Positions 36,257 through 58,528 of a stretch of DNA of 64,000 nt are shown piece by piece. The stretch comes from a virus, in the IMG/VR virus record IMGVR_UViG_3300002520_000085, positions 1 through 64,000 of that record. One strand, given 5' to 3'. The position numbers and the translations under genes were made by a program. Each line of letters opens with the position of its first letter. The stretch's first letter is position 1. Below the pieces are notes generated by a model, which was given only the letters and a program-made list of their open reading frames with translations, searched no databases and had not been told where the DNA came from.

Positions 36257-36404
36257 CTTTTAAAATGTCTGAAAAATGTCTGAACAAATATAATATTTTG
36301 TAAGTATTTTGTAAGTATTTTAATCGGAATTTTAAATATGAAAAGTTAATGTAAAGCTTTAAGGAAAAAGAAAAACACGCTGTAAATCAACGTGTTTCAA
36401 AGTG

Positions 36405-36476
36405 AGCCAACTACGGGACTTGAACCCGTGACCTCTTCCTTACCAAGGAAGCACTCTACCGCTGAGCTAAGTCGGC
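36405..36476 (-). tRNA. tRNA-Thr (anticodon GGT)
   Basis: Reverse complement GCCGACTTAGCTCAGCGGTAGAGTGCTTCCTTGGTAAGGAAG...GGTTCAAGTCCCGTAGTTGGCT folds as a cloverleaf; anticodon loop TTGGTAA. Confidence 0.8.
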
Positions 36477-36515
36477 GTAAAATAAAAAATCACACTAAAA
36501 GCGTGATTTTTATTG

Positions 36516-36588
36516 AGCGGAAGACGGGGGTCGAACCCGCGACATTCAGCTTGGAAGGCTGACGCTCTACCAACTGAGCTACTTCCGC
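36516..36588 (-). tRNA. tRNA-Gly (anticodon TCC), copy 1
   Basis: Reverse complement GCGGAAGTAGCTCAGTTGGTAGAGCGTCAGCCTTCCAAGCTGAATGTCGCGGGTTCGACCCCCGTCTTCCGCT. Confidence 0.8.
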
Positions 36589-36610
36589 AATTTTGTTTCC
36601 AAAATTATTG

Positions 36611-36647
36611 GTACAGTCAGTCCCATTTAGCCACTCTGGAATCTCCC
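36611..36647 (-). pseudogene. truncated tRNA-Tyr remnant (5' half through anticodon GTA only), copy 1
   Basis: Reverse complement GGGGAGATTCCAGAGTGGCTAAATGGGACTGACTGTA closely resembles the tRNA-Tyr acceptor 5' strand, D-arm and anticodon loop. No matching 3' half before tRNA-Gly begins. Confidence 0.5.
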
Positions 36648-36666
36648 CGAGTTTATATTAAAATAG

Positions 36667-36740
36667 AGCTTCCAGAGGGATTCGAACCCACGACCCCGAG
36701 ATTACAAATCACGTGCTCTGGCCAACTGAGCTATGGAAGC
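36667..36740 (-). tRNA. tRNA-Thr (anticodon TGT), copy 1
   Basis: Reverse complement GCTTCCATAGCTCAGTTGGCCAGAGCACGTGATTTGTAATCTCGGGGTCGTGGGTTCGAATCCCTCTGGAAGC; anticodon loop TTTGTAA. One U-U mismatch in both the anticodon stem and the T stem, hence moderate confidence on isotype. Confidence 0.6.
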
Positions 36741-36832
36741 GTTTTAATATATTCTAAACTGAAAGCTGAGAGAAAAGCTACTCTGCACCAAATTCAGCAG
36801 TAAAAAATTATCTTATAATAAGAATAATTTTG

Positions 36833-36905
36833 AGCGGAAGACGGGGGTCGAACCCGCGACATTCAGCTTGGAAGGCTGACGCTCTACCAACTGAGCTACT
36901 TCCGC
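36833..36905 (-). tRNA. tRNA-Gly (TCC), copy 2
   Basis: Identical to copy 1. Confidence 0.8.
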
Positions 36906-36930
36906 AATTTTGTTTCCAAAATTATTGGGT

Positions 36931-36967
36931 TACAGTCAGTCCCATTTAGCCACTCTGGAATCTCCCC
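36931..36967 (-). pseudogene. truncated tRNA-Tyr remnant, copy 2
   Basis: Identical to copy 1. Confidence 0.5.
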
Positions 36968-36984
36968 GAGTTTATATTAAAAAG

Positions 36985-37058
36985 AGCTTCCAGAGGGATT
37001 CGAACCCACGACCCCGAGATTACAAATCACGTGCTCTGGCCAACTGAGCTATGGAAGC
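36985..37058 (-). tRNA. tRNA-Thr (TGT), copy 2
   Basis: Identical to copy 1. Confidence 0.6.
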
Positions 37059-37166: not shown

Positions 37167-37457
37167 CTAGGCCATTTCTTTTTTCTTGATTAATAGCTTC
37201 TTAGCTGTATCTACGCAAGAATCTAAACTTTCTTCAAATGACGCGCATGTCTTTTTTACAACAATATCATCACCCGGAACGACTAAGATAAGCTCTGTAG
37301 TCTTATTGGCACCGTCTGAAGCGTTTTCAACTTTTAAGAAGATTTTACACTCCTGTATTTTGTCGTAGAAAGTGTCTAGTTTGTTTACTTTTTTTTCAAT
37401 GTGATCTTCTAGTGGTTCATGTGGTGTTAAACCAATTGATTGTACTGTGATCTTCAT
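37167..37457 (-). CDS. hpf: ribosome hibernation promoting factor / ribosome-associated inhibitor A (YfiA family)
   Basis: 96 aa, MKITVQSIGLTPHEPLEDHIEKKVNKLDTFYDKI matches the N-terminus of the HPF/RaiA family. Conserved neighbourhood with xer and rpsU. Confidence 0.8.
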   Translation of the reverse strand: MKITVQSIGLTPHEPLEDHIEKKVNKLDTFYDKIQECKIFLKVENASDGANKTTELILVVPGDDIVVKKTCASFEESLDSCVDTAKKLLIKKKEMA

Positions 37458-38368
37458 AATTCTTCTTTTTTAGCGGCTCTGGGATGAGCCAGATTAAACA
37501 CTTTTTTTAGTTGTTCTATATTAGCATTCGTATATACTTGTGTACTTGCAAGACTAGAATGTCCTAATATTTTTTTTACTTTTGATATTTCAGCACCATT
37601 ATCTAAAACGTGTGTAGCAAAGCTATGTCTTAGAATATGGGGGCTCTTTTTTTTCTTTGATGTTACAATACTAAGGTACTTATTAACGGCTAAGTAAACA
37701 AATTTTTCGGTGAGTTTTTTTCCATTTTTATTTACGAAAAAATATTCAGCGAAATCTGATTGCGCGCTTCTTATACTAAGGTATTGTGAGAGTAGCGATT
37801 GTAGGTTATCTGAGATGGGAATATAGCGTTCTTTATTGCCTTTTCCTATTATCTTTAGCTCTCGTGTATCTAGATTTACATTTTCAAATATCAAGCCACA
37901 CAGTTCTGCTTTTCGCATGCCTGTTTGGTAAAGTGTTTCAATGATGCAGTGTTCCAGGATATTATCTTTTTCAGAAAATGCTTTTTCTTCTAAAGTTTTC
38001 ATTTCTTCCGGAGAAATTGGAATCTGTTTTTCTGCGTAAAACTTTAGTGAACTTACATTTTCAACTGGTGAAGCTTTAATTTCATCAATTTTTAGTAAGA
38101 ATTTATAAAAGCTTCTTAGGGTTGAGATTTTTCTATTGATGCTTCGTTTGGCGATTTTCTTTTCGCTAAGGTCTATTATAAAGTTGCGAATTACTTTTTT
38201 ATCAACCACCAAAATGTTGTCTGAAGCCTCTGTTTTTAGATAGAATTCGGAAAAATCTTCCAAATCTTTTTTGTAGCTCGTAACGGTGTGAGGAGAATAA
38301 CGTTTTTCGTACGTGATGTATTGAAGAAATTTATCTATCATAGGTATATAAACAAAAAATTCACTCAA
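37454..38368 (-). CDS. chromosomal tyrosine recombinase XerC/XerD family
   Basis: ILRHSFATHVLDNGAEISKVKKILGHSSLASTQVYTN catalytic motifs (R, HxxR, H, Y). 304 aa. Conserved rpsU-xer-hpf context. Confidence 0.75.
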   Translation of the reverse strand: MSEFFVYIPMIDKFLQYITYEKRYSPHTVTSYKKDLEDFSEFYLKTEASDNILVVDKKVIRNFIIDLSEKKIAKRSINRKISTLRSFYKFLLKIDEIKASPVENVSSLKFYAEKQIPISPEEMKTLEEKAFSEKDNILEHCIIETLYQTGMRKAELCGLIFENVNLDTRELKIIGKGNKERYIPISDNLQSLLSQYLSIRSAQSDFAEYFFVNKNGKKLTEKFVYLAVNKYLSIVTSKKKKSPHILRHSFATHVLDNGAEISKVKKILGHSSLASTQVYTNANIEQLKKVFNLAHPRAAKKEEL

Positions 38369-38767: not shown

Positions 38768-39170
38768 GGGGTTGACTGGTTTCGACAGCAAGACCAATGG
38801 GTAAGTAAGCATGCAGAGAACCGTAGCGCGATCTCTATAATCCCTTGCTACAAAATTTTAACTGGCAACGAAGAGTTCGCTCTTGCAGCTTAATAATTGA
38901 AGTTTAGTAGATTCAAGCGTTTTCCCGAAGATTTTAGTAAGGAAGCAAGATGTTCCACAAATGCTCTGTTCTGCGGCGTTTGATTCTGGAATATAGGAAT
39001 GCGGAAATAAGTCTTATCTCGCTTCGCGATACGATCGAAAATCTTAGAAGATAAGCTGAAAGTTGGGTGTCTACTCTCTGCTTTCAGTCGAAAATAAATA
39101 GTAGAATAAGCATGTAGAAATCTTATGTATTGCTTGTTTGGACGAGGGTTCGAATCCCTCCAACTCCACA
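38768..39170 (+). ncRNA. ssrA: tmRNA (transfer-messenger RNA), tag peptide ...GNEEFALAA
   Basis: 5' GGGGTTGACTGGTTTCGAC pairs with 3' CAACTCCA. tRNA-like T-arm GGACGAGGGTTCGAATCCCTC. In-frame tag reading frame ctggcaacgaagagttcgctcttgcagcttaataa. Confidence 0.85.
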
Positions 39171-39256: not shown

Positions 39257-39955
39257 TTAAGACAGGCTTCTTTCCAGATTTAGTTTTATTTTCTCCCAGC
39301 TAGGTAATACTTCGGCTAATGTTCTATAAAAATCTTTTGAATGATTGGGATGAATTAAATGGCAAAGCTCGTGCAGGATAACATACTCTATACAAGCCTT
39401 ATTTGCTTTTATCAACTCTGTATTCAATATGATATTGCCATTCATTGAGCAACTTCCCCAACGTTTTTTCATAAACCGATGAGTGAGTTTTATGTCATAA
39501 GTATTAAACTGTGGAAACTGAGAAAGTAATTGATCTAGCAATTCTTTGAAAACACTATCCGCCTTGCTTTTATAAAATTTTTGAATGATTTGTTCTATAT
39601 TATCATTTTTAGTTGTGATGGTAAACAAACCTTTCCCTAAATTAATATTGGTTTTATTTTGTTCCGTTTTATTAATCACCAATTTATACTGCCTTCCTAG
39701 ATAACGATGGGTTTCTCCAGGAATATATAATCTTTTTTTGGTAAATGGTCTGAACAATTCAAATGTGCGTTGTTGTTGCAAAATCCACTTAGATTTTGGT
39801 TTTATTTTTTCTACAATTTTTTCTATTGATGTATTTTTAGGAACTGTAATCTGGATATTACCTTCTGGAAAAACTCGTAAATCCATCGTCTTTCTGTCCG
39901 AATAAATAACTTCTGCTTCGATATTTTTCTTACCGTACTTATATTCAATCTTCAT
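39257..39955 (-). CDS. DUF45/M48-family zinc metallopeptidase (YgjP-like), Type I R-M associated
   Basis: HEXXH motif VILHELCHLIHPNHS; 232 aa; stop is 2 nt from the hsdR start. Confidence 0.65.
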   Translation of the reverse strand: MKIEYKYGKKNIEAEVIYSDRKTMDLRVFPEGNIQITVPKNTSIEKIVEKIKPKSKWILQQQRTFELFRPFTKKRLYIPGETHRYLGRQYKLVINKTEQNKTNINLGKGLFTITTKNDNIEQIIQKFYKSKADSVFKELLDQLLSQFPQFNTYDIKLTHRFMKKRWGSCSMNGNIILNTELIKANKACIEYVILHELCHLIHPNHSKDFYRTLAEVLPSWEKIKLNLERSLS

Positions 39956-39957: not shown

Positions 39958-42900
39958 TTAATCCATTTGCTTTTTAGCTATTTTAATCACTTCTTCTACA
40001 AAGTCATCTAAAATATCAAAAGGAATTTGATGATCCATTTCCAATGATAAGCTATAAAAATAGTCATCTAATTCACTCCAAATTTGCTTTTCAATTTCTT
40101 TGTTCAACTTCCAGTCAACGATAGCTCTATTGTTTTCTCTAGTTATATTTTTTATTAATTCTTTAATTTTTAAAGCAATTTCAGCATTTTGCAATCTATC
40201 TCCTAAAAATGTAAACAATTTCGCATTTATAAAATTATAAAATGCTACCGCTATTTTGTTTCCTTCAATTATTACTGGTACATCGTCTTGTTTTCCTGAT
40301 TGGAATCGTTCTTCAAAATCTTTCATTTTGTTTAGATATTCCGTTTCGTCAATACGACTTTGCTTATAATCCAAAATAGTTTCTTTTATTAACTCTGAAA
40401 GTTTTTTATAGAAAATAGGATCCTCATCCATTTTAATGGAAATCCCTTTTGAAGTACGTGCAGCAATATGATCTGCCTTTGCTGCTTTACCAATTAACTT
40501 TTCTACTTCTTCATCTCTCTCTTGTTTATTAAAAATATCAATAGGTTCTGTTATTCTTAGAACTTCACCATCTGTCGTAATGTGCTTATCAATCAGTTTT
40601 TGAACTTGAGTTTCATAAGCTTTAAAATCGATTTCATCATAGTACCTGCGTTTAACATCAATTCTTAACTGCACAAAAAACTTAATATCTTTTTTATACT
40701 TTTCAATAACAATATCATTTTTCACATCATTAAATTCTATGGTTGCCATTGCAAGACCAAAGAGCCTAACAAATTTGGATAGTTTTTCGTAAAATAAATG
40801 ACGTTGTTCTTCATCCCCTAAATGAACCGCATAAGCTTCGGTGTCGTATTTGTTTTTTATTCCTGAAAAAATATTCCAAACCTCTGAATGCGATTGTGGT
40901 AAATCTTTAATAATATCCTTTACATTCGTTACCGAACCTTTAACATCCTCTGGGTTCATTTCATCAGATCCGGAATAGATTTCTATTGCTTTATCTAAAT
41001 TTTCCAGGTTACCATAGTAATCTACAATTAGTCCATAATCTTTACCTTCAGCCAATCTATTAACTCTAGCAATCGCTTGCAAAAGAGTATGTTCCTTTAA
41101 GCTTCTTGTTAAATAAAGAACTCTATTTTTAGGAGCATCAAAACCTGTTAATAATTTATCTACTACAATAATAATTTCAGGATCATCTTGTTTCTTGAAA
41201 GCATTAATTATAGACTTTTCGTATTTTTCTTGAGTACCATATTTATCCATCATTGCTTTGTGAAATGATAAGACTAAATCTTCGTTTTCCTCAAAAGCAT
41301 CTTCGTGATTCTCACGAGTATCAGGAGCAGAAATAACAACATCTGAAGTCACCTTACCAATCTCATTAAGATATTTGCGGTATAAAATAGCTGTTGTCTT
41401 ATTAGGTGCCACCAACTGAGCTTTAAAACCAGTACCTTGAATGAAATTGACAAAATGCTCTGTTATGTCCCAAGCTCTATCATAAATTACTTGGTCTGCT
41501 TTATTAATGGCATTTTTGGAACTGTATTTTCTTTTTAAACCCGCTTTTCCATACTTCGTTAATGGTTCTGCTACTTTCTCAAAGAAATTATCAAGAGGCT
41601 TCTCATTTACAGTAATAGAATTGTGACGCCCTTCATAAAGTAAAGGAACGACAGCCCCATCTTCTACCGCATCTTTAATTGTATATTCATCTATTACCCC
41701 ACCAAATTTATCTGCTGTATTTTTTTCAGACTTCATTAAAGGCGTCCCAGTAAATGCAATAAAACATCCATTGGGGAAGGTTTTCTGCATTTTGACATTG
41801 AACGTTTTGTACTGACTACGGTGACCTTCGTCTATTAATACAAAAATCTCCGAAGAAGAAAACCCATCTGGCTCTTGATTGACTGCGGCTTTGAACTTAT
41901 TGATAATGGTAGTAATAACCGCATCTGACGTACTTTTCAATAATTCTATAAGATGCTTACCTGTGGCCGCTTCTTCCACAGGAATATTGCATTTCTGAAA
42001 AGTTTCTGTAATTTGAGAATTAAGATCTATACGGTCTGTAACTAATATTATTTTAGGATTTTTAATTTTTTTGCTCAAAGCAATTTGTTCCGCCAACATT
42101 ACCATTGTCAGCGATTTACCACTCCCTTGTGTATGCCAAATAACACCACCTTTTCTCTTACCAGAAGCCCCAATATCTTCAATTTGCTTAATGGTTTTTG
42201 TTATTCCATAATATTGCTGATATCTTGCTATCTTTTTAATACCTTCATCATATAGAATAAAACTAAACATCAACTCCAATAACCTTTTGGGATCACAAAT
42301 ACTGTATAGTAATTTGTCTTGTTCAGTAACCGCTACTTCTAACTTACCCAATTCTTTGAAATGCTTGATTGTGGGCCAATATCTTGTTTTAAAGATCTCT
42401 GTATGGCTATCGGTTGGCAGCTCTTGTTGTTTTAGATCGAATAAATTTTGAAAAAAAGACGCCTCTTTTTTAGCACTCGTAAACTTTTCTTTCCAAACCG
42501 ACCAGAATTTTGCAGGCGTAGCTGTTGTAGCATATTTAGCATCGCTTACCGCAAGTGATAAAAGTATATTAGAATAGACATATAAATCTCTGATACCATC
42601 TTCTTGTTGGTTGCGCAAATGTTGAGAAATCCCTTCTTCTACAGGCTGTTTTATCGAATTAGACTTACACTCTATAACCACCATAGGAATACCGTTTATA
42701 AACAGTACAATGTCTGGTCTATAACTGTCTGAACGATTAGAACGTGTTACCGAAAACTCCTCTGATACATGATAAGAATTGTTTTGTGGGTTTTCCCAGT
42801 CGATGTACTTGAAAGAATAGCTTTTACGGTCTTGATTAATGGTTTGGTCGAAACTTTTACCTAAAGTAATTAAATCATAAAAATGCTGGTTGGCATTAAT

Positions 42901-43167
42901 AAAACCCAGATGAAGTGGCAATTCTTTTAAAGTTTCGATAGCCAAGTCTATGTTACTCTCTGAAAAGTCGTGAGTCTGCCCTTTATAATCTATTTTATTG
43001 TTTTTTTTGAGCTGTTCTCTAAGTATATCGGTGAGGATTACATTCGTTTTTCTGTTGTCACGAAGCTCTAAAGCTTGATCGGGAGCTATATAAGTATAAC
43101 CCATTTTTATCAGCATTTGCAATGCTGGTATTTGACTTATATGATCTTCTGTGTATGATGGTGTCAT
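39958..43167 (-). CDS. hsdR: Type I restriction enzyme R subunit (HsdR)
   Basis: Walker A GSGKSLTMVMLAEQ, DEAH-box VLIDEGHRSQ, helicase motifs, 1069 aa. Confidence 0.9.
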   Translation of the reverse strand: MTPSYTEDHISQIPALQMLIKMGYTYIAPDQALELRDNRKTNVILTDILREQLKKNNKIDYKGQTHDFSESNIDLAIETLKELPLHLGFINANQHFYDLITLGKSFDQTINQDRKSYSFKYIDWENPQNNSYHVSEEFSVTRSNRSDSYRPDIVLFINGIPMVVIECKSNSIKQPVEEGISQHLRNQQEDGIRDLYVYSNILLSLAVSDAKYATTATPAKFWSVWKEKFTSAKKEASFFQNLFDLKQQELPTDSHTEIFKTRYWPTIKHFKELGKLEVAVTEQDKLLYSICDPKRLLELMFSFILYDEGIKKIARYQQYYGITKTIKQIEDIGASGKRKGGVIWHTQGSGKSLTMVMLAEQIALSKKIKNPKIILVTDRIDLNSQITETFQKCNIPVEEAATGKHLIELLKSTSDAVITTIINKFKAAVNQEPDGFSSSEIFVLIDEGHRSQYKTFNVKMQKTFPNGCFIAFTGTPLMKSEKNTADKFGGVIDEYTIKDAVEDGAVVPLLYEGRHNSITVNEKPLDNFFEKVAEPLTKYGKAGLKRKYSSKNAINKADQVIYDRAWDITEHFVNFIQGTGFKAQLVAPNKTTAILYRKYLNEIGKVTSDVVISAPDTRENHEDAFEENEDLVLSFHKAMMDKYGTQEKYEKSIINAFKKQDDPEIIIVVDKLLTGFDAPKNRVLYLTRSLKEHTLLQAIARVNRLAEGKDYGLIVDYYGNLENLDKAIEIYSGSDEMNPEDVKGSVTNVKDIIKDLPQSHSEVWNIFSGIKNKYDTEAYAVHLGDEEQRHLFYEKLSKFVRLFGLAMATIEFNDVKNDIVIEKYKKDIKFFVQLRIDVKRRYYDEIDFKAYETQVQKLIDKHITTDGEVLRITEPIDIFNKQERDEEVEKLIGKAAKADHIAARTSKGISIKMDEDPIFYKKLSELIKETILDYKQSRIDETEYLNKMKDFEERFQSGKQDDVPVIIEGNKIAVAFYNFINAKLFTFLGDRLQNAEIALKIKELIKNITRENNRAIVDWKLNKEIEKQIWSELDDYFYSLSLEMDHQIPFDILDDFVEEVIKIAKKQMD

Positions 43168-43203
43168 TTATAATATTGGTTTGGTTCAATAGTATTTTTA
43201 TAA

Positions 43204-44337
43204 TTATGCTGATTGATGAACAATATCAATCGCTTTCACAAAACCTCCAAGTTCTCTATTTTGGTCGAATATAGTCATCGATAAATCTGCTTTAGGCATC
43301 CACACACGACCTAGTTGAACAGCTAAAGAAACAGGCATTGCAGGAAAAATATTTAATATAGCTTCTTGACCGTGTAATCTTTTAATTTCTCTATAAGCTT
43401 CTTTCATTTTTTCTCCAAAATCTGTAATCTGTTTACGTGATTTTACGAAGTCGTTATCCGGATGATCTATTTTGATGCTGTATATAGAGGTATCATCTCC
43501 TAAAACAGAAGTTATACGATCATCTGTAATTGTATCACTTAATTCAATCTTTAAAGCAATATTTGTTTTGACTTCTGCTGCTAGTTCTAAGTTATATACC
43601 GTATCGATATCAGCTTCAAAATTCCAAGTATCTGGATTTCTCCTTTTTTGACGTACATCTACAGAATAGATATCATTTAACATTGTTCCTAATTTCATTA
43701 AAATAGGCATAGGCCCAAATGGAAACAATGAAATATGCTTTATCTCTCCACTGTTTAATAATGGAAATAAAAAACGTTCAAATTTTTGATTAAGATTCCT
43801 TAATTCATCAATCCAAAAATTTGGATCTGAATCTTTATTTAAAGAATTAATGACCCCTAAATCAATATTTTTAGCTTCGGCTGGATAATAATCAGGAGCT
43901 AAAAATTGACTAACAATACTATATTGAACATTGGGTGTGTGAACTCCGATATTCATATTCAATGTTACAATATGACTTTGTTTATCTGGAGCAATTGCAC
44001 AAGCATTTGCAATACGATTTTCGTGCTCCGTTTTCATTTCTACTAATAAACTTTCAGGATTACCTGCAACATCATCCCTATCAATCAAGCGATGGTGTGT
44101 ATCGCATAATAACATTAAATTTGAAATATCATCGGCCAATTGTACAGATCTTGTACTACAACCACGTGGTCCACCTGGACTATCGGCCACGATATGAGCT
44201 ATATATGATTGATTGAAATTTCTTTTCGTTAAAATGTCAGTATGTAGAATTTTATTACAACCTCTGTATTGGCATCTACCACCAGAGATAGACCAAAGCA
44301 TGTATTTATTTTTATCTGAAATAGATGTCACACTCAT
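43204..44337 (-). CDS. HNH nuclease fusion protein (N-terminal HNH, ~250-aa C-terminal domain of unknown function) between hsdS and hsdR
   Basis: CQYRGCNKILH...AHIVADSPGGPRG...NLMLLCDTHHRLID is a canonical HNH. ATGA overlap with the hsdS stop; 36 nt from the hsdR start. Confidence 0.65.
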   Translation of the reverse strand: MSVTSISDKNKYMLWSISGGRCQYRGCNKILHTDILTKRNFNQSYIAHIVADSPGGPRGCSTRSVQLADDISNLMLLCDTHHRLIDRDDVAGNPESLLVEMKTEHENRIANACAIAPDKQSHIVTLNMNIGVHTPNVQYSIVSQFLAPDYYPAEAKNIDLGVINSLNKDSDPNFWIDELRNLNQKFERFLFPLLNSGEIKHISLFPFGPMPILMKLGTMLNDIYSVDVRQKRRNPDTWNFEADIDTVYNLELAAEVKTNIALKIELSDTITDDRITSVLGDDTSIYSIKIDHPDNDFVKSRKQITDFGEKMKEAYREIKRLHGQEAILNIFPAMPVSLAVQLGRVWMPKADLSMTIFDQNRELGGFVKAIDIVHQSA

Positions 44338-45533
44338 ACCGTACGTACTTTACCGGTTAATAATTGCTGCATTAATCCTTTCTTTTGAAGTTTTAAAGCC
44401 TCTAATTTTTGTTGGTATTGTTTTACTTCTTGGTTGGCTGTATTTAGGATTTCTGCAATGGCATTTTGTTCTTCTAATGATGGATTTGGTAAAATAATCG
44501 TTGAAAAATCATCGTAACTAATATTTTTACCGTCTCTGATACCAATTACAGCAACTGATAAGCGTCCAATTAAATCTTCACTTTTGAAATAATATTTATA
44601 AAAATCATCATTAATTGGATTAATCGATTTTAAAACAGTATAAGCTGGACTTACAAGTCCTGTATATTCAGAATATTCAATACCACCTTGGAATGATCTT
44701 AAGCTAATTACAAAATCACCTTTTTCAACTAATTTATATGTCTTTAAACTACCAGAAGGCATTGTTACACGAGTTTCAATCATATCTCGAGGAATCATAC
44801 CAAATTCTTGAGTTGCTGATAATAATACTGAATCCTCTGGGTTATTTTTTATCGAAACACTTTTAAAAAGTTCATTCGCTAAAGATTTTATAAATTCTTT
44901 ACCCTCAAATCCTTTCACGCGCTTTTTACCTGTCAACAACGAAAACGCTAACGCCTTATTTCTAGCTTCTAGTTTTTTGATAATGGAATCGGTTTCTTGG
45001 ATGGCTTTATCCCACGTAGACAATACATCGGCAATTTTTTGTTGCTCTGGTAGTGGTGGAAGTGGGATATCAAAATCATTAATTGCTTTTGTGTCCAAAA
45101 ATGGTTGTGCTGCACCAACAAATGCTTTTTGTTTTTGCTGTTCAATGTAATTTGATTGTAAACTTAAAAAGATATATGATTTATTTTGATTTGCATTTAC
45201 TCTAATTCTTGGGGCGTTATAGCTATGTGGCAAATTAAACCATTCACATTTAGGTAGAAAAACAGCTCCAGCTGTAGCACCAGTTCCTGCAAATAAAATA
45301 TCTCTCTCATTCAAAAGAAAGTTATTTATGTTTTCAAAATCTTTTATGTAAACTGGTTTATCTTCAAAAAAATCATTAATGCGTATAAAGCGTATGCCTT
45401 CTTCATTAACATATTCTAAATATTGAGAACCAGCACCTCTTTTAACTTGCCCAATATCTTTTATTTTTACTAATTCCCAATCTGTAGGGATAGGTCCGAT
45501 GGATGTATTTTTATATTGTGTTGTTTTTATCAT
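44334..45533 (-). CDS. hsdS: Type I R-M specificity subunit (HsdS), two target-recognition domains
   Basis: Conserved repeats LPPLPEQQKIADVLSTWDKAIQ and LPNPSLEEQNAIAEILNTANQEV, 399 aa. Confidence 0.85.
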   Translation of the reverse strand: MIKTTQYKNTSIGPIPTDWELVKIKDIGQVKRGAGSQYLEYVNEEGIRFIRINDFFEDKPVYIKDFENINNFLLNERDILFAGTGATAGAVFLPKCEWFNLPHSYNAPRIRVNANQNKSYIFLSLQSNYIEQQKQKAFVGAAQPFLDTKAINDFDIPLPPLPEQQKIADVLSTWDKAIQETDSIIKKLEARNKALAFSLLTGKKRVKGFEGKEFIKSLANELFKSVSIKNNPEDSVLLSATQEFGMIPRDMIETRVTMPSGSLKTYKLVEKGDFVISLRSFQGGIEYSEYTGLVSPAYTVLKSINPINDDFYKYYFKSEDLIGRLSVAVIGIRDGKNISYDDFSTIILPNPSLEEQNAIAEILNTANQEVKQYQQKLEALKLQKKGLMQQLLTGKVRTV

Positions 45534-45546: not shown

Positions 45547-46329
45547 TTATGCTAGGTCTTGGTCTGTAATCGTAAAAACAGACTTTATTGCATGTAGTGC
45601 ATCTTCGCTTTTTGCGCCTTTCATTCCCATTGCTTTAAACACATCGGGTGTAGGTAAATCCTCTTTTATCATTTTAAGGAATTCTATCATCAGCTCTTTG
45701 ATGGGTTTTGGCAATTCAAAACGCTCTTCTCCAGTAAATAGCAAAGCTAATTTGAGGCAATCGTTTTTATGCTTTTTTAGGTGTTTGCTGTCTTCTTTGC
45801 TTCCATTAGCAATACGCCCCGTAATGTCTAAATATGCTTTTGCCTTTAAAGCAATTAAAGCTTCTGTATTTGCACGATGCACATCTGACACGATCACACT
45901 ATGTTCTCTAATAAATTGATAGAAGGTGTCGTCTAATAAAATGGCAGATAAGCTACTTAAATCATCATCTGCCGGAATAGGCGTTAAGTGCATCTCAGGA
46001 TCTAATTCAATCAAATCTGGTTTACGTGAAAACAATTCTATCTGCTGTGGAAAATCTTCGTTTTCCGGATCCATAAATCGATAGTATTGGCGTTCGTCGC
46101 TGCTTATTTCTTTTCGGTTGTAATTGCCCTCTTTTATAAATTGCCAAAATTTTTTTAAGAATTCCGGATTTAAAGCTTCTATCACTAAAATGATGTCAAT
46201 ATCTTTTGTGGCACGAGCTACTAATCCTTCATCTTCTATTATCATATCGCAAGCAGTACCACCGATAATGATATAATTATCTGGAAACGCAGCAAAATAT
46301 GCTTTAAATTGTTCTATGCCTTTTACCAT
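45547..46329 (-). CDS. AbiEii/MenT-like (DUF1814) nucleotidyltransferase toxin candidate
   Basis: IIGGTACDMI...ATKDIDIILVIE fits the GGTAL...DIDF pattern of the AbiEii NTase family. 260 aa. 7-nt overlap with the upstream gene. Confidence 0.45.
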   Translation of the reverse strand: MVKGIEQFKAYFAAFPDNYIIIGGTACDMIIEDEGLVARATKDIDIILVIEALNPEFLKKFWQFIKEGNYNRKEISSDERQYYRFMDPENEDFPQQIELFSRKPDLIELDPEMHLTPIPADDDLSSLSAILLDDTFYQFIREHSVIVSDVHRANTEALIALKAKAYLDITGRIANGSKEDSKHLKKHKNDCLKLALLFTGEERFELPKPIKELMIEFLKMIKEDLPTPDVFKAMGMKGAKSEDALHAIKSVFTITDQDLA

Positions 46330-47366
46330 ATAAATCGATTGATTAAGTGTTCTAATTCCATTTGCACACGTTCGTCTTGATCTTCTTTATAGGTTAAGAA
46401 TAAAGAGATTGGATCGACCTTGTCGTATGCTGATTGACTGATTCTGTTGATGAAACTTGGATCGTATTTCCATATTTGAAATAGATATTCTCCACCAAAT
46501 TCATTGAATGTATTGGGTTGGTTATTCTTCTTGATTAAGTTAAATGTTTGATTATCTATAGCAAAAGCCATTTGATTGCTTGGGTTTATATTGGTGTACT
46601 CCGTTAAGGCAGTATTTCCTGCTTTTAATAATGGTAAATTCCAATTGAAATTATATGCTACAAAATACTCTTTAGCAATGGGATTGATAAAAATGTTGTT
46701 TTGTAGTCCTTTTTCCCACAATGTTTTTCTATCGAATTTGAATTGGAACATTTTATAACGACCACGCTGTACGATTTCTATTAATTCTAATTCGGCTAAA
46801 TTTTCGACTGCACGAGAAACGTTGATGGTATTTACCTGAAATTGGTTTGCAATTTCTTTTAATGGAATATCTTCGATTGTATATCGATTATTTGTATTCA
46901 GCAAATGTGCAATGACTAATACCTGAGCAAAAGGTTGCAAGGTTTGTGCAGTACGACCTTTTGTTTGGTATCTGTATTCTGTAAAATCGATGAATACGTA
47001 TGGTATATACAGTTGCTTAAACGGTACGATAAATGCTCGTTTTTTTTCGATTAATCGTTTACGATTATAGGCTTCCATTTCGTCCACACAAAGAATAATG
47101 GGTTGATTAATTCTTTCTTCAATATTTGCTAGTTGTGTGTCTATGGCTGCAATTGTAAACTCGTCATCCGTTTCTGCATAGGCAATGACGAATTTTTTAT
47201 TTAACATCAACAACTCGTACCACTCATAGGCATTACGTAAATATATGGGTAATTGATTAAGGATATCCTTGCTTAAAGGGCTTACCTCGCAATGAATTCC
47301 TATCGTTTCGTTGATGTAATTTTTTAGCTGAATCATAATACTAACATTAAAATTGCACGATAACAA
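46323..47366 (-). CDS. AbiEi-like / wHTH-containing putative cognate antitoxin-regulator
   Basis: wHTH-like KEIANQFQVNTINVSRAVENLAELELIEIVQRGRY; overlaps the downstream NTase gene; 347 aa. Confidence 0.3.
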   Translation of the reverse strand: MLSCNFNVSIMIQLKNYINETIGIHCEVSPLSKDILNQLPIYLRNAYEWYELLMLNKKFVIAYAETDDEFTIAAIDTQLANIEERINQPIILCVDEMEAYNRKRLIEKKRAFIVPFKQLYIPYVFIDFTEYRYQTKGRTAQTLQPFAQVLVIAHLLNTNNRYTIEDIPLKEIANQFQVNTINVSRAVENLAELELIEIVQRGRYKMFQFKFDRKTLWEKGLQNNIFINPIAKEYFVAYNFNWNLPLLKAGNTALTEYTNINPSNQMAFAIDNQTFNLIKKNNQPNTFNEFGGEYLFQIWKYDPSFINRISQSAYDKVDPISLFLTYKEDQDERVQMELEHLINRFIW

Positions 47367-47401
47367 ATATAATGTTATTATGCAGAAAAAGCGTTACTAA
47401 T

Positions 47402-48136
47402 TTAAAAATGAATTATTTTGTTGCAATCCTTAATTTCCGAAGACTTATCCAATTGATTGGTAATTAAGCTCGTGTTCCTTATATTTATCATCTCATTGGC
47501 TGTATGTGTATGACCATAAATCCAATACAGTGGTTGGTATTTTACAATCAAATCCTCTAAAGAAGATCCATAAACAGTACTGAAATTTTCTTGTTCCGGA
47601 ATAGATAACATTACAGGACAATGATGTGTTACTACGATGGTTTTACTGGGATTTGCAGTTTGAAATTTATGCTCCAAAAAACTCAATGCATCGTTATGAA
47701 ATGCATTATAATCGAACGCATCTATATAATCCTCTTGGTTTTTAATGTATTTAAAATCGTTGATGTGATATTGTAAAAACCATCTTTTGTTTAGGTCTAC
47801 ATTAGACCATAAAGTAGAGCAAATCAATTCATAATCCTCTAGCAACACCGATTGGTTATTGATTAAAAATACATTTTCTCGAATGGGAATATTACAGGAT
47901 TGATATGATTGGTAATCTGAGCCATAAAATTCATGATTTCCAGGAATCCAAAAAACTTTAGTAAAAGCCTGACTGATATGATCTAGAAAAAAATTAATTT
48001 GATCGATCTGGTTTAATGGTATAATATCGCCCGCAAGAACTAAATAATCCGCACAAGGTTGAACAGGATATTTTTTAAAAAACATCCTGTTGTTAAGTGA
48101 TTCTAAATGAAGATCTGAAATGTATTGTATTTTCAT
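47402..48136 (-). CDS. calcineurin-like metallophosphoesterase
   Basis: MPP motifs SDLHLE, LAGDI, GNHEF, VTHH, GHTH. 244 aa. ATGA overlap with the upstream 144-aa gene. Confidence 0.8.
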   Translation of the reverse strand: MKIQYISDLHLESLNNRMFFKKYPVQPCADYLVLAGDIIPLNQIDQINFFLDHISQAFTKVFWIPGNHEFYGSDYQSYQSCNIPIRENVFLINNQSVLLEDYELICSTLWSNVDLNKRWFLQYHINDFKYIKNQEDYIDAFDYNAFHNDALSFLEHKFQTANPSKTIVVTHHCPVMLSIPEQENFSTVYGSSLEDLIVKYQPLYWIYGHTHTANEMINIRNTSLITNQLDKSSEIKDCNKIIHF

Positions 48137-48570
48137 TATTTTTTTGAATTACCGTGTTCTACACCACCACCATGCCATTCGCCAGTTACTAACCAAATTT
48201 CGTAATGATATAGCCATTCTATTGCCCATGGAATAATTGTACTTGCAATCATTTTACCTTCATGCCACTCCTTATCTTTAGGATAATATAAACACAACTC
48301 TTGTAAATCATGATTGTATACATGCTTGAGTCTGGTTTCGTTTTCAGGTAAACTTAATTTCTCAGGATTAACAACAAATGTTTTTGGTTTGCTACTCACT
48401 TCATAAATTATCTTAACTGTATATTTATCTCCCAGAGGAGATGACTTTAGTACACCTTCCCAAGTAAATCCCTTATTCTTGTTAAGAATTAATTTCGATT
48501 CAGGATAATACTGTTTTAATAAACGTAGTTGTTCTTTTAAAGGTATTTTATTAATCTTCTTCAATACCAA
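48136..48570 (-). CDS. hypothetical 144-aa protein in the NTase-phosphoesterase cassette
   Basis: ORF overlapping both neighbours; no recognisable motif. Confidence 0.5.
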   Translation of the reverse strand: MVLKKINKIPLKEQLRLLKQYYPESKLILNKNKGFTWEGVLKSSPLGDKYTVKIIYEVSSKPKTFVVNPEKLSLPENETRLKHVYNHDLQELCLYYPKDKEWHEGKMIASTIIPWAIEWLYHYEIWLVTGEWHGGGVEHGNSKK

Positions 48571-49837
48571 AAAATTTATGGGGTTTAATAGAATTAATTG
48601 ATGTTAAACCAGCCGTAGCTGTACCCACAACTCCGAGTTTACGATCAATATTATTTTGTCCTGATTCCGTTAATAATCTACTACGATTAGCATACTCGCT
48701 AAACGTTTTAAGTACAGCATCTTTTCCGAATGAATTTTTAAGCGATTCAGAAATATTTTGCAATCCTGTTTTAGATTGCGCATCTCTTAAATCAGCTTTC
48801 ACTTGCTCTAACCATCTGTAAAAATTTTCACGTCTAACCGATCCTTCGTCGTTCCAACGATCTGCAAAATTTTCTTTCCTATTCGTAGGGTTGGAAATCC
48901 ATTCAACATCTTTGTTTAAGTTAGGATCAAAAACAAATTCTATTTCATCTTCCATACGATTAATTACCCCCCACAATGCATCAATTAACTCTTCTTCCTC
49001 TCGGTACGCACGAGCTGCTAAAGTTGTTATGATACAAGAAATAGGTTTTTGTTTTTTCACATCTTCATCTTGTTCATGAGTAAAATAAATATCACGATGT
49101 CTCTTTAAAAGTTGAACCACTTTTTGTAGTGGTAAACGTGCCTCTTGATACTCTGGTACAGGCTTTACAGCTTCATTCAATGAAAATGTTCTTTTTTTCA
49201 TCCCTTTAATTGTTTTAGCTATATTCATAAACCAAATAGCATACCCATAAGGATTGCTTTGTTTCCAAAATTCTGATCTAACTTCAGTATCATACCCACT
49301 CTCTTCTTTATCAGTAATACTTAATCGTAGTTGATCAAAATCCTCGTAACTATCCGCACTCATTGCCTTTTCCAATATGATTGCATAACCAGAAGATATT
49401 AATGCTGGTAAAATATCCATATGATATCTTTGATTCGCAGATTCAGTATTTTCTCTATAATTTAGTGTCCAACATCTACGTCCTTCTTCATCCAGCATTT
49501 CCCTATAGCGATCACTTTCTTTTAAACGATTACCTACAGCATTTTTTAAATGATATTGTGCCCAATTTTCTGGTTTTCTCTTGAATTCGCATACAACATC
49601 TAGATCGATATCATCATTAGGATCTATAGGCTGGATTGTTGTACCGATAATAAATGAACCTTGAGGTTTAATGTATGGCTGATAAACAGATAATGATGAA
49701 TTATCATTAGATAAAAATTTCCCGACTGCTTTATAACTTTGAATAGCAGCTTCATGTTGCGACTTAGAAATACTAAGATTTTTCACTAGAGTTTCTAGTA
49801 TTTCGTTAAATTGAAATTTGTGATTTGGTGTATTCAT
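48551..49837 (-). CDS. cGAS/DncV/OAS-like nucleotidyltransferase (CD-NTase-like)
   Basis: GSFIIGTTIQPIDPNDDIDLDVV (GS...DxD) and downstream HMDILPAL (third-Asp h-D-h-LPA pattern of OAS/cGAS-type NTases). 428 aa. 21 nt after the hsdM stop. Confidence 0.55.
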   Translation of the reverse strand: MNTPNHKFQFNEILETLVKNLSISKSQHEAAIQSYKAVGKFLSNDNSSLSVYQPYIKPQGSFIIGTTIQPIDPNDDIDLDVVCEFKRKPENWAQYHLKNAVGNRLKESDRYREMLDEEGRRCWTLNYRENTESANQRYHMDILPALISSGYAIILEKAMSADSYEDFDQLRLSITDKEESGYDTEVRSEFWKQSNPYGYAIWFMNIAKTIKGMKKRTFSLNEAVKPVPEYQEARLPLQKVVQLLKRHRDIYFTHEQDEDVKKQKPISCIITTLAARAYREEEELIDALWGVINRMEDEIEFVFDPNLNKDVEWISNPTNRKENFADRWNDEGSVRRENFYRWLEQVKADLRDAQSKTGLQNISESLKNSFGKDAVLKTFSEYANRSRLLTESGQNNIDRKLGVVGTATAGLTSINSIKPHKFFGIEED

Positions 49838-51389: not shown

Positions 51390-51974
51390 TTATTTGCTAA
51401 AATTATTAATGATTTGATTGAACAATACTTGTTTTTTTTCTTTCAACTGTTCAAGAATTTCTATTTCTTTTTTATGAATTTTATACATATCTACAATTTT
51501 TTTCTGCATTTCCATCGAATGTATAGGAATTTCAAAATCTAACAACTCTTTCTTTCTTATCGATGGAATGGAACTTCCTGCGCTTACCTGATTAAAATAG
51601 GAAATACTTTTGGAGTGGTTTAAAATACACGTCACATAATCTGGTAAAACCACCGTTGAATCTACTTTTATAATATAGAAAATAGAAGAAGCAACAGCGT
51701 CTCCCATTTCTTTATCGTATTTAAAAGCAAAAAACTTCATTCCTTTGCTTACAAAAAGAATTTCATCCTGTCTAAGAAGGATATTTTCTGAAATTTCATC
51801 AGCATTTACATAAGAATCTACATTATTCAGATACATTCCATTGTCTGAAAAGTTTTTCACTTGCAGATAAGGAATCCCCTTTTTATTAGATGCTTTTATA
51901 TATTGCCCGAAACTTAAAGCACAAATGTTTTGCAACTTTGTTTTGGTAATTTTAATCATTGTAGAGTTTTTCAA
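51390..51974 (-). CDS. hsdS: half-size HsdS (single TRD plus conserved C-terminal repeat)
   Basis: IPSIRKKELLDFEIPIHSMEMQKKIVDMY...ILEQLKEKKQVLFNQII is the conserved HsdS region; 194 aa; stop is 1 nt from the hsdM start. Confidence 0.7.
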   Translation of the reverse strand: MKNSTMIKITKTKLQNICALSFGQYIKASNKKGIPYLQVKNFSDNGMYLNNVDSYVNADEISENILLRQDEILFVSKGMKFFAFKYDKEMGDAVASSIFYIIKVDSTVVLPDYVTCILNHSKSISYFNQVSAGSSIPSIRKKELLDFEIPIHSMEMQKKIVDMYKIHKKEIEILEQLKEKKQVLFNQIINNFSK

Positions 51975-53269: not shown

Positions 53270-53279
53270 TTTTATTTAA

Positions 53280-53420
53280 ATTTGATGTATTAAACCTGTA
53301 ACTTTTTTATTCAGGGTAACTAACAACCTGTATCTATTTTATACAGGGTAACTGATACCCTTGCTTTATTTTAAAAGGTTCTGGGGAATTAAACCTTGTA
53401 CTATTTTTTACAGGTTAAAG
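53280..53420. promoter_or_regulatory. oriT-like region with CAGGGTAACT / AACCTGTA repeats upstream of mob
   Basis: ttcagggtaactaacaacctgt...atacagggtaactgatacc...aaaccttgtact...tacaggttaaag. Confidence 0.4.
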
Positions 53421-53527
53421 CCTCGCAGAGCGAAGAAGAAACTTTGTTGGGAGAGCATCGACCTTCAAAGTTGCGAATGAGCTCCTAACTTCTGCGTGTA
53501 GTTGGTAAAAAATATCCGCACGCATAA

Positions 53528-54333: not shown

Positions 54334-54339
54334 AAGTGT

Positions 54340-54600
54340 AAAATGTTAGGGGTTGATTTTTGGAAATATTTTGATGAAATGATGAGAAAACCGTATAATG
54401 ATTTGACTGTAAGTAAAATACATTCTCATCAAAGTATCATCATCTCATCAAACTTCAAATTTTTTGCTCATCGGTCTTTCATCAAAAATCAAGGTTTTAA
54501 AATTTGATGAGGATTTTGATGAGATATAAATTGTTGATTTTCTTCTTATTATCAATTAATTCATCATTTCATCAAATTTTTGAAGAATAAAATCTTTTTT
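54340..54600. repeat. iteron-like TCATCAAA/TTTGATGA repeats (at least 8 copies, both orientations), putative element ori
   Basis: tttgatgaaatgatgag, catctcatcaaacttc, tttcatcaaaaatc, atttgatgaggattttgatgagat, ttcatcatttcatcaaattt. Confidence 0.55.
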
Positions 54601-55794: not shown

Positions 55795-55867
55795 TTTTTT
55801 GGATTTTAATTCCGTGGGAATACGGAAGGTTAGGGAATGGTGTTTTGGATAAACAAATGAAAAATGT

Positions 55868-56146: not shown

Positions 56147-56223
56147 ATATTTATTTTAAAATTCTATGCAAATATTCCTCGTTTATGTGTTTAATCTATA
56201 AATTATAGTAAATTCAGTAAAAT

Positions 56224-58331: not shown

Positions 58332-58345
58332 TCCCTCCAACTCCA
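58332..58345. repeat. 14-bp duplicate of the tmRNA 3' end (CCCTCCAACTCCAC), candidate attR core
   Basis: Identical to tmRNA 39156-39169; ~110 bp outside the right 24-bp repeat. Confidence 0.5.
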
Positions 58346-58528
58346 CTTTTCAAACTAAAGAGAATTTGTAAATTATTGAATTTTAAATAATTACATTTTC
58401 TCTTTTTTGCTTTTGTACCCAAAATTGTACCCGAGTTTTTGAAATGTACTTTTTTAAATCTGTTTGAATTTAATTAAACTTATTTGAATTTTGAGAATAC
58501 AATAAGTTATTGTAATAGTACAAATATA

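Follow-up and report, generated by a model that had tools for sequence, protein, structure and literature searches.

A cap5 gene, a CBASS cyclase and a CBASS E2 interleaved with a Type I restriction-modification operon

Gene content of the operon and its island

The window, the whole 64,000-nt stretch of DNA that was analysed, contains an operon of 11 tightly packed, co-oriented genes, with intergenic distances of -20 to +36 nt. Its framework is a Type I restriction-modification (R-M) chassis in the order half-size hsdS, hsdM, slot 1, hsdS, slot 2, hsdR and ygjP. In the window, slot 1 holds a cyclase-E2 gene pair and slot 2 holds the gene under study, cap5, whose strand (minus) the original prediction had left unstated. 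The features are:

38768-39169: tmRNA gene
39155..39169, plus strand: attL, copy of a 15-nt direct repeat at the tmRNA 3′ end
39257..39955, minus strand: YgjP-like metallopeptidase, last gene of the chassis (PF01863, 4.8e-53)
39958..43167, minus strand: hsdR, Type I restriction/translocase subunit (HSDR_N, SWI2_SNF2, T1R_D3-like and ResIII matches; PADLOC REase_I, 2.3e-195)
43204..44337, minus strand: cap5, predicted HNH-SAVED effector nuclease of CBASS, 377 aa, ATG start
43222-43953, minus strand: SAVED domain of cap5, about aa 129-372
43993-44337, minus strand: HNH domain of cap5, about aa 1-115
44334..45533, minus strand: hsdS, full-size specificity subunit (Methylase_S, 2.3e-29, in two stretches; PADLOC Specificity_I, 3e-89)
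45547..48136, minus strand: three-gene cargo cassette between E2 and hsdS
45547-46329, minus strand: NTase-fold AbiEii/MenT-like protein of the cassette, 260 aa
46323-47366, minus strand: wHTH protein of the cassette, 347 aa
47402-48136, minus strand: metallophosphoesterase of the cassette
48136..48570, minus strand: CBASS E2, ubiquitin-conjugating-like putative regulator of the cyclase, 142-144 aa
48551..49837, minus strand: CD-NTase, CdnG-like cyclase, putative signal synthase of CBASS, 428 aa
49859..51388, minus strand: hsdM, Type I methyltransferase (N6_Mtase, 6.7e-105; HsdM_N, 1.6e-22)
51390..51974, minus strand: half-size hsdS-like gene, first of the chassis, 194 aa (weak NCBIfam S-subunit matches)
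56952-58193, minus strand: tyrosine integrase of the island (integrase domains)
58332..58346, plus strand: attR, second copy of the 15-nt repeat, beside the integrase

The outer genes of the chassis are regular members of it: the half-size hsdS-like gene, whose identical product carries a weak Methylase_S match, precedes hsdM in most chassis loci, and ygjP comes after hsdR in nearly every one. Domain matches identify the ORF upstream of cap5 as HsdS and the one downstream as HsdR, as originally described. The junctions are also as described, with the cap5 start overlapping the hsdS stop by 4 nt (an ATGA overlap that reads GGTATGAGTG) and the cap5 end separated from the hsdR ATG by 36 nt (43168-43203). 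The ratio dN/dS of cap5 is 0.07-0.11 when compared with four orthologs, and a homolog search recovers 1988 homologs at E<=1e-20; cap5 is therefore a genuine gene that purifying selection maintains. The cyclase, the E2 and cap5 are co-oriented in one gene string, yet they are not contiguous. The cyclase and E2 are 3.8 kb upstream of cap5 with four genes between, and such a distance between effector and cyclase-E2 is unusual for CBASS.

Within the cargo cassette, the 260-aa protein has no match to PDB sequences in a profile search, and fold comparison gives modest NTase/MenT matches. The combination of metallophosphoesterase, wHTH protein and MenT-like NTase is widespread and unnamed, and we flag it as a defence candidate.

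The operon belongs to a 19-kb island that encodes an integrase and is integrated at the tmRNA gene. ARAGORN and Rfam both detect this tmRNA, and the exact 15-nt repeat that bounds the island occurs in two copies where zero are expected. Chryseobacterium sp. TY3 (JBJZOS010000007) is an example of a strain with the island. Across the operon, sigma-70 sites number 62 versus 67 expected from shuffles, in a scan that leaves out Bacteroidota promoters, and intrinsic terminators number 7 versus 6.4 expected from shuffles. Neither count improves on the shuffles, and neither bears on transcript structure. The R-M and CBASS genes are probably transcribed together and transferred as a unit, providing layered defences.

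Family identity of Cap5, the cyclase and the E2

The product of cap5 is an ordinary member of the Cap5 family, judged by its sequence, and by itself it extends no knowledge of that family. The original prediction had raised a SAVED/CARF-like ligand sensor as a possible identity for the C-terminal domain, and Pfam bears this out with a match at residues 182-372 to SAVED, a fused double-CARF-like domain (PF18145, 1.3e-44); NCBIfam likewise returns SAVED (1.2e-41). The full-length protein matches the CBASS 'Effector Endonuclease' model of PADLOC (PDLC00739, 5e-144), the best PADLOC matches are CBASS effectors without exception, and residues 5-367 align end to end with AsCap5 (PDB 7rwk, 2.5e-84). 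Structure prediction followed by Foldseek, the check suggested for this domain at the outset, agrees: the top 37 PDB matches are all Cap5, and the SAVED region of the AF2 model (pLDDT 85-97) aligns with the Cap5 SAVED domains 7rws and 8ysq at a TMt of 0.80. The HNH half of the same model is of low confidence (pLDDT <50), and we therefore make no structural statement on the active site.

The HNH call made originally is also correct. Its motif strings are each found in the translation, as CQYRGC (C22-C27), AHIVA (A47-A51) and NLMLLCDTHHRLID (N73-D86), and across 21 homologs with identities down to 53%, the HNH/Zn residues C22, C27, H48, N73, C78, H81 and H82 are invariant. The Pfam HNH_2 match is weak and falls under its gathering score (19.8 versus 21 bits), so that membership rests on these invariant residues and on the alignment of the region with the HNH domain of AsCap5.

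The ligand-contact residues are kept as well. In the same 21 homologs R233, K349 and D351 never vary, and D222 almost never does. According to the 7rwk alignment, R233 corresponds to AsCap5 R231 and LlCap5 R234, which recognises the 2′-5′ linkage (PMC8568899), and K349, D351 and D222 correspond to AsCap5 K347, D349 and D220, any of which lowers activity when mutated (PMC8568899). The position of AsCap5 R310 is a lysine (K312) in the window protein. In the Cap5 family, a cyclic dinucleotide alone activates the nuclease in vitro (PMC8568899, PMC12141522).

The operon also contains the candidate source of such a ligand. The OAS-like NTase noticed originally is a cGAS/DncV-like nucleotidyltransferase in the co-oriented string, with Pfam matches to DncV-like_NTFase and SMODS, a PADLOC match to Cyclase PDLC00780 (7e-124) and PDB matches to the cGAMP synthase 9woo (2e-54) and to SmCdnG 8hsb (3.3e-39). 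Its provisional placement in clade G is based on resemblance to SmCdnG instead of a phylogeny. Its residues G60, S61, D78, D80 and D141 (GS...DxD...D) and its C-terminal G424 are invariant among the 13 orthologs that share the window's gene order (arrangement A, below). The overlapping ORF next to it encodes an E2 (PADLOC PDLC00863, 1.1e-47), whose identical product carries a precomputed Pfam E2-CBASS match (PF26395) and whose H83 and C93 are invariant in the arrangement-A orthologs. No E1 or JAB match was found in the operon with Pfam or PADLOC. In the characterised SmCdnG-SmE2 pair, the E2 ligates the cyclase C-terminus (PMC12948482). Because the cyclase and E2 share the 11-gene operon with cap5, we assign cap5 to an E2-type (type II-short) CBASS as its effector; the suggestion that the operon's NTase supplies a ligand, which had been offered only as the alternative, is the right reading, the NTase being a CD-NTase with an E2 partner.

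Embedding of Cap5 in Type I operons

We compared the loci of the 80 nearest species-level Cap5 homologs. A CdnG gene is present in 74 of them, and the six exceptions are contig ends or IS disruption. One exception, locus L025, has Cap5 next to hsdR with no cyclase and was considered as a PrrC-like case; it was rejected as an IS630-type disruption that has left a 3′ remnant of hsdS. Most homologs (52/80) are standalone CBASS loci outside any such R-M operon, and 33 of these 52 are flanked on each side by 5 kb or more of sequence. The remaining 28/80 belong to several phyla and lie inside the Type I R-M chassis, where at least five gene orders occur, and CBASS genes interleaved with R-M genes recur in many Bacteroidota.

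The window's order (cyclase-E2, hsdS, Cap5), which we call arrangement A, is found in 14 species. The position between hsdS and hsdR that the original prediction likened to the prrC slot is thus a real and repeated one. The split order and its 4-nt hsdS/cap5 overlap are conserved in 10 loci from three chassis lineages, with hsdM identities down to about 60%. In other chassis loci, Cap5 lies beside hsdM, AbiTii or TIR genes come between hsdS and cap5, or further genes come between cap5 and hsdR. The AbiTii insertion is precise, at a gene boundary, and gives an example of cargo entry into a Type I operon; no repeat or att-like motif was found at its junction.

A survey of HNH genes at the hsdS-hsdR junction had been proposed, and we surveyed slot 2 in 46 related R-M operons. 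The junction does prove to be an occupied site, filled in 34/46, mostly by other defence genes (AbiTii, Schlafen, YhcG, TIR, DUF3800, PLD and others), but Cap5 is not tied to it. In this R-M family the hsdS-hsdR junction is a generic cargo slot, and CBASS occupies only 3/46 of the hsdM-anchored operons. Slot 1, like slot 2, regularly receives other defence genes in this chassis. E2-CBASS systems with patatin effectors are likewise embedded in the window's R-M family.

Cap5 alleles recombine independently of hsdM and hsdR. Pairwise identities of Cap5 track those of hsdM and hsdR weakly (rho 0.55-0.58, versus 0.94 for hsdM-hsdR). In a neighbour-joining tree drawn without support values, embedded Cap5 proteins are intermixed with standalone ones, and arrangement A may have had one origin or several. 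Between the window and locus L002, dS is 0.176 for cap5 versus 0.003-0.024 for hsdM, cdnG and hsdR. Locus L005 has a foreign Cap5 allele in an operon that otherwise belongs to lineage iii.

The general embedding of defence systems in Type I R-M is known ('guilt by embedding', bioRxiv 10.1101/2024.01.29.577857), with examples in DarTG2, embedded in the EPEC RRDM island (PMC12255303), and TgvAB, embedded in V. cholerae VPI-2 (PMC11411939). A Type I operon slot that hosts accessory defence has been proposed to be a recombination hotspot (PMC12255303, PMC11411939, bioRxiv 10.1101/2024.01.29.577857). In the searchable literature we found no description of a CBASS that lies within a Type I R-M operon or is divided by one, although an older mention under SMODS/SAVED is possible. 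The window's cap5 belongs to a known family, and its composite arrangement is a recurrent one.

Proposed activation, rival explanations and known systems

Cap5, the cyclase and the E2 each belong to their assigned families, keep their catalytic and ligand-contact residues and occur together in one operon. How they would act is a proposal modelled on homologs that have been characterised. Once a phage infects, the cyclase, under E2 regulation, would make a cyclic dinucleotide, most likely 3′,2′-cGAMP by analogy with homologs at moderate identity. The cyclic dinucleotide would bind the SAVED domain of a Cap5 dimer, SAVED-SAVED stacking would build the active oligomer, and its HNH domains would then degrade DNA without discrimination, so that the cell dies or is arrested, as in abortive infection. 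Combined with the chassis, the result would be a layered defence with restriction first and suicide second. We give a probability of about 0.85 to this reading, in which cap5 is the effector of an E2-type CBASS, carried as cargo in a Type I R-M chassis and activated by nucleotide without R-M. We infer that Cap5 activation needs no R-M proteins; the 28/80 embedding and the conserved hsdS-cap5 junction may leave room for some R-M coupling that is not required.

The headline of the original prediction was a different one: Cap5 as a PrrC-like latent nuclease, masked by HsdMSR and freed when phage anti-restriction blocks the enzyme. Its appeal lies in the position of cap5, which occupies the prrC slot and is translationally coupled to hsdS, and in the precedent of PrrC itself (PMC12707154). 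The protein, however, lacks PrrC-type domains: Pfam, PADLOC and NCBIfam return HNH and SAVED only, with neither an ABC-ATPase-like N-domain nor an anticodon-nuclease C-domain. Its ligand pocket is intact and conserved, its cognate cyclase is in the operon, and its homologs need the cyclic dinucleotide alone in vitro (PMC8568899). The genomic evidence points the same way, as 52 of the 80 homologs dispense with the chassis, CdnG accompanies cap5 wherever the contig allows, Cap5 elsewhere sits beside hsdM or is parted from hsdS (by AbiTii or TIR) or from hsdR by other genes, and Cap5 alleles swap between R-M lineages. The PrrC-like model does not survive these observations well, and we regard it as very improbable. 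Less credible still is a standalone McrA-like Type IV HNH enzyme, the outcome that the original prediction had set against itself, or an orphan effector in decay that has no relation to the cyclase. An HNH motif is present and the cyclase is four genes away, but the domain order with a C-terminal SAVED partner is that of Cap5 and not McrA, which led us to reject the Type IV assignment. The non-HNH domain is a second-messenger sensor, no modified-DNA-binding module was detected in Cap5, and the split order is conserved in 14 species. Nor is cap5 decaying, since its dN/dS is low and its catalytic and ligand residues are invariant.

There is a subtler form of coupling, in which the cyclase and E2 sense Type I inhibition by anti-restriction proteins, or restriction products, and Cap5 backs up R-M through the cyclic nucleotide. 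The triggers of CBASS are mostly ill-defined, which leaves space for such a signal. The recurrence of Cap5 in a single R-M family across several gene orders and phyla, the patatin-effector E2-CBASS in that same family, and the maintenance of the split order with its 4-nt hsdS/cap5 overlap in 10 loci of three lineages all favour it. On the other side, the chassis hosts many unrelated cargos, most Cap5 homologs are standalone and the modules are exchanged independently; because the slot is recombination-permissive, with its many cargos and CBASS in few operons, the embedding can be explained without a functional link. At the level of invariant residues, the cyclase and E2 have no domain specific to the embedded copies. 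We consider this indirect coupling unlikely.

Equally doubtful is the broader idea that recurrent embedding is functional, with E2-CBASS serving as a signalling 'guard' of restriction in this Type I family. The cyclase and E2 might fire once anti-restriction proteins block the R-M complex or it is overwhelmed; alternatively, translational coupling to hsdS might adjust the amount of Cap5 to that of the R-M complexes. If the guard reading were true, the split order would have been selected so that losing either system is costly, CBASS would gain a defined trigger, and the logic of PrrC would extend to second-messenger immunity. The comparative result is worth keeping in any case: roughly one in three of the nearest species-level Cap5 systems sits within a single Type I R-M family, and a split order around hsdS, with a translationally coupled hsdS-cap5 junction, is kept through deep chassis divergence. 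The family may be a tractable natural system for asking whether embedded defences share only a promoter and a vehicle or communicate, and how cargo enters Type I operons at exact gene boundaries, as in the AbiTii insertion and the Cap5 allele swap.

Compared with the prr locus, where PrrC accompanies the EcoprrI Type IC R-M system, the window likewise has an abortive-infection nuclease gene between hsdS and hsdR, but the two families are unrelated. PrrC joins an ABC-ATPase to an anticodon nuclease (ACNase), targets tRNA-Lys and is activated by R-M inhibition or Stp with dTTP, whereas Cap5 joins HNH to SAVED, would target DNA and would respond to a cyclic dinucleotide for which the operon has a dedicated synthase. 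PrrC itself is nearly always embedded in Type I R-M ('almost exclusively'), and most Cap5 genes are not.

The known Cap5 proteins (AsCap5, 7RWK; LlCap5, 7RWM/7RWS; PsCap5, 8FM1/8FMH/9DIF) have the same two-domain architecture and length as the window protein, which keeps the HNH/Zn residues and the SAVED contacts, and here too a CdnG-type cyclase and an E2 are in the same operon. Unlike the known genes, the window's cap5 is set apart from its cyclase, with hsdS and the three-gene cassette between the two. The described E2-CBASS, or type II-short, systems (SmCdnG-SmE2, PMC12948482; AsCdnG-Cap5, PMC8568899) similarly have a long SmCdnG-like CD-NTase, a small E2 with a conserved Cys whose ORF overlaps the cyclase, and a SAVED-nuclease effector, and the cyclase C-terminal Gly and E2 Cys93 of the window match those of SmCdnG-SmE2. 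Those systems are compact three-gene operons, in contrast to the window's set, which is interleaved with Type I R-M genes. DarTG2, TgvAB and the 'guilt by embedding' cases are comparable in placing complete accessory systems in the hsdS-hsdR or hsdM-hsdS slot. The window differs from DarTG2 and TgvAB in that a multi-gene signalling system is divided between two slots, with the effector placed apart from its synthase and regulator, and in that its R-M family has hosted E2-CBASS repeatedly.

Cap5 and its cyclase partners

The gene between hsdS and hsdR is, by its sequence, an intact Cap5, the HNH-SAVED effector nuclease of CBASS. The original prediction of an HNH nuclease in this position was exact in its coordinates, the gene lies on the minus strand, and the motif strings CQYRGC, AHIVA and NLMLLCDTHHRLID are all present in the reading frame. 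The gene lies between a full-size HsdS and an HsdR as described, its start shares the hsdS stop (ATGA), its stop precedes the hsdR ATG by 36 nt, and the OAS-like NTase proposed for the operon is a cGAS/DncV-like nucleotidyltransferase upstream in the same gene string.

Genes of the operon, in order and co-oriented
51390-51974, half-size hsdS-like gene, upstream of hsdM
hsdM
48551-49837, CD-NTase (cdnG), DncV-like_NTFase and SMODS (Pfam), PADLOC Cyclase 7e-124
48136-48570, CBASS E2, overlapping the cyclase frame, PADLOC 1.1e-47, PF26395 E2-CBASS
metallophosphoesterase
347-aa wHTH protein
260-aa protein
44334-45533, full-size hsdS
43204-44337, minus strand, cap5, 377 aa, ATG start
39958-43167, hsdR
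39257-39955, YgjP-like metallopeptidase, after hsdR

The C-terminal domain, for which a SAVED-like fold had been guessed, is indeed SAVED (Pfam PF18145, 1.3e-44, residues 182-372; NCBIfam, 1.2e-41). The PADLOC CBASS 'Effector, Endonuclease' model matches the product end to end (5e-144), the Asticcacaulis sp. Cap5 crystal structure 7RWK aligns to residues 5-367 (2.5e-84), and DwCap5, LlCap5 and PsCap5 align as well. In an AlphaFold model built with 21 homologs as input, the SAVED half is confident (pLDDT 85-97) and the HNH half poor; the top 37 Foldseek matches in the PDB are all Cap5 structures, with a TMt of 0.80 to isolated Cap5-SAVED domains. The 21 aligned homologs, some as little as 53% identical, all share the HNH/Zn residues C22, C27, H48, N73, C78, H81 and H82 as well as R233, K349 and D351, and D222 is nearly invariant. 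R233 aligns with AsCap5 R231 and LlCap5 R234, which reads the 2'-5' linkage of 3',2'-cGAMP, and K349, D351 and D222 align with AsCap5 K347, D349 and D220; mutants of these three AsCap5 residues are less active (PMC8568899). The cap5 dN/dS ratio against four orthologs is 0.07-0.11.

The suggestion that the operon's NTase could supply a ligand was also right, as the enzyme is a CD-NTase with an E2 partner. It matches a cGAMP synthase (2e-54) and SmCdnG (3.3e-39) in the PDB. In 13 orthologous operons, cyclase residues G60, S61, D78, D80, D141 and the C-terminal G424 are kept, together with E2 residues H83 and C93. In the E2-CBASS class, E2 ligates the cyclase C-terminus (PMC12948482), and the two window proteins carry the features of that class, including the cyclase C-terminal Gly and the E2 Cys. 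Pfam and PADLOC domain searches of the operon gave no hit to E1, to JAB or to further accessory proteins of CBASS.

The island and its surroundings

The 11 genes span 51974 to 39257 and are spaced by -20 to +36 nt, and the operon edge lies 88 nt past the 3' terminus of a tmRNA gene. The 15 nt that close this gene, TCCCTCCAACTCCAC (39155-39169), recur once, just beyond a tyrosine integrase (two copies versus zero expected). This repeat pair encloses the operon and, at 52115-58193, a 384-aa ORF with no Pfam match, a DUF5906/VapE-like gene and the integrase. Because the repeat is an exact tmRNA 3' end with an integrase adjacent, the defence operon is the cargo of an integrative island of ~19.2 kb that sits at this gene.

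Other features of the window
773-4045, DnaG-type primase
27885-31340, tape-measure-like protein, 1151 aa
within the prophage-like region 1-36256, HIRAN protein
35039-36256, integrase at the end of that region
36404-37058, array of five tRNA genes (Thr/Gly repeated), next to this integrase
37454-38368, XerC/D-like recombinase
38768-39169, tmRNA gene
56952-58193, tyrosine integrase of the island
58332-58346, second copy of the 15-nt repeat
58529-59053, ArdA anti-restriction gene, just beyond attR
61719-63230, HTH-fused C5 cytosine DNA methyltransferase, just beyond attR

The features listed for the first ~35 kb resemble those of a prophage. An anti-Type-I-R-M gene, ardA, adjoins a Type I R-M island; it and the C5 methyltransferase probably belong to another mobile element.

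Cargo slots and exchange of modules

We scanned one genome per species and analysed the best 80 of 230 Cap5 relatives by tblastn and ORF maps, defining the chassis as half-hsdS, hsdM ... hsdS ... hsdR, ygjP. The chassis embeds Cap5 in 28 of these 80 loci, with hsdM 54-100% identical to the window's. The remaining 52 hold a compact, free-standing CBASS, and 33 of these have flanking sequence of 5 kb or more on either side.

Gene orders of embedded loci
A, hsdM-cdnG-E2-hsdS-cap5-(0-2.2 kb cargo)-hsdR, the window's order, 14 species, Bacteroidota
B, hsdM-cap5-cdnG-E2-hsdS-hsdR, Pirellulales, Balneolales, Aminicenantes and others; E2 of a 260-aa type or fused to the cyclase
C, hsdS-cap5-cdnG-E2-hsdR
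D, cdnG-E2-cap5-hsdS
E, hsdS-cdnG-E2-cap5-hsdR

Three more loci are truncated or IS-disrupted forms of order A. A cyclase gene lies alongside Cap5 in 74 of the 80 loci; the remaining six are at contig ends or, for L025, carry an IS630-type insertion. We rejected the apparent orphan Cap5 beside hsdR at L025:8863-9983, which is an order-A operon cut by an IS630/Tc1-type transposase, with a 20-codon hsdS 3' remnant kept in front of cap5. Another order-A operon holds extra cargo between cap5 and hsdR (L018:11124-15284: patatin, a TM-GGDEF protein, phosphoesterase, DUF3800 and two short ORFs resembling a split nucleotidyltransferase), which may be a second nucleotide-signalling module.

As a check on whether this slot is peculiar to Cap5, we retrieved 80 metagenomic loci with HsdM similarity as the sole criterion. 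Both hsdM and hsdR were present in 46 of the 80 fetched, and seven of the 46 were empty; slot 1 (hsdM|hsdS) was filled in 25 and slot 2 (hsdS|hsdR) in 34. The cargo genes of the two surveys include AbiTii, Schlafen/AlbA_2, YhcG (PDC-S02), DUF1883-TIR (PDC-S66), Tin, DUF3800, PD-Lambda-3_B, PLD-like, RhuM and the phosphoesterase cassette found in the window. CBASS occurs in only three of the 46 loci, all with patatin effectors. In this R-M family, the 'PrrC position' is therefore a slot for cargo in general. In metagenomic loci L094, L101, L103 and L114, E2-CBASS with patatin (CapV-like) effectors occupies the same chassis; the order is hsdM-patatin-cyclase-E2-hsdS where slot 1 is used and hsdS-patatin-cyclase-E2-hsdR where slot 2 is. 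It is thus E2-CBASS generally, and not only Cap5, that is associated with this chassis. The R-M family keeps a fixed frame, as in the window and most of the related loci L002-L161: a half-size hsdS-like gene (~185-215 aa) immediately precedes hsdM in addition to the full-size hsdS, and a YgjP-like metallopeptidase lies directly 3' of hsdR.

Pairwise identity matrices of 12 order-A operons resolve three lineages of the chassis. The identities of hsdM and hsdR track each other closely (rho 0.94), followed by cdnG (0.83-0.85), and Cap5 is the least coupled (0.40-0.62). At locus L005, the chassis and cyclase belong to lineage iii (88-93% identical to L018/L019), but the Cap5 shares 78% identity with the window group and 53-54% with lineage iii; Cap5 was replaced on its own in this lineage. 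By implication, alleles of the effector can be exchanged between cyclases, in keeping with a ligand common to them. Over the operon, the DNA of the window is 98-99% identical to that of Chryseobacterium sp. TY3 (L002), with two exceptions forming one patch: swapped hsdS target-recognition regions, and a 1002-bp AbiTii cassette exactly at the hsdS-stop/cap5-start junction (L002:8999-10000 and L003:9023-9982, versus window 44336/44337), where no repeat or att-like motif was seen. Between these two operons, dS is 0.176 for cap5 versus 0.003-0.024 for hsdM, cdnG and hsdR. The weak Cap5 correlation, the L005 allele and the cap5 dS argue against tight co-adaptation of Cap5 with R-M subunits, in a sample that is small and phylogenetically non-independent. 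Against this, the 4-nt hsdS/cap5 overlap is kept in 10 loci, and lineages whose HsdM proteins are only ~60% identical still have order A; the composite operon is therefore a stable, successful unit.

Proposed mechanism and relation to known systems

On infection, by analogy with characterized systems, the E2-regulated CdnG-like cyclase would make a cyclic dinucleotide. Our best guess is 3',2'-cGAMP, because it activates AsCap5, the nearest solved Cap5, and LlCap5, and the Arg reading the 2'-5' linkage is conserved. The dinucleotide would bind SAVED, and SAVED stacking would form the active oligomer, a tetramer in PsCap5 (PMC8568899, PMC12141522); the HNH domains would then degrade DNA, leading to abortive infection (PMC8568899, PMC12141522). 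Type I restriction and then CBASS suicide would act as successive layers within one operon on one mobile island.

The original prediction instead proposed that the nuclease may be a PrrC-style guard of the R-M enzyme. Its positional analogy to prrC is real, with cap5 between hsdS and hsdR, but the guard model finds no support: the slot takes general cargo, Cap5 swaps alleles relative to R-M, and 52 of 80 loci are standalone. A weaker form, tying the sensing step of CBASS to the state of the R-M system, we consider improbable. Ligand activation of Cap5 by its own cyclase is the reading we prefer.

In a literature search that did not include the SMODS/SAVED founding paper, we found no description of an E2-CBASS that is interwoven with Type I R-M genes and divided by them, or of such a layout recurring among a third of the close homologs of Cap5; the split arrangement is a modest new comparative observation. 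Cap5, E2-CBASS and defence genes embedded in Type I R-M operons are already known, and a general cargo slot agrees with the published embedding of PrrC, DarTG2, TgvAB and PADLOC PDC candidates in such operons.
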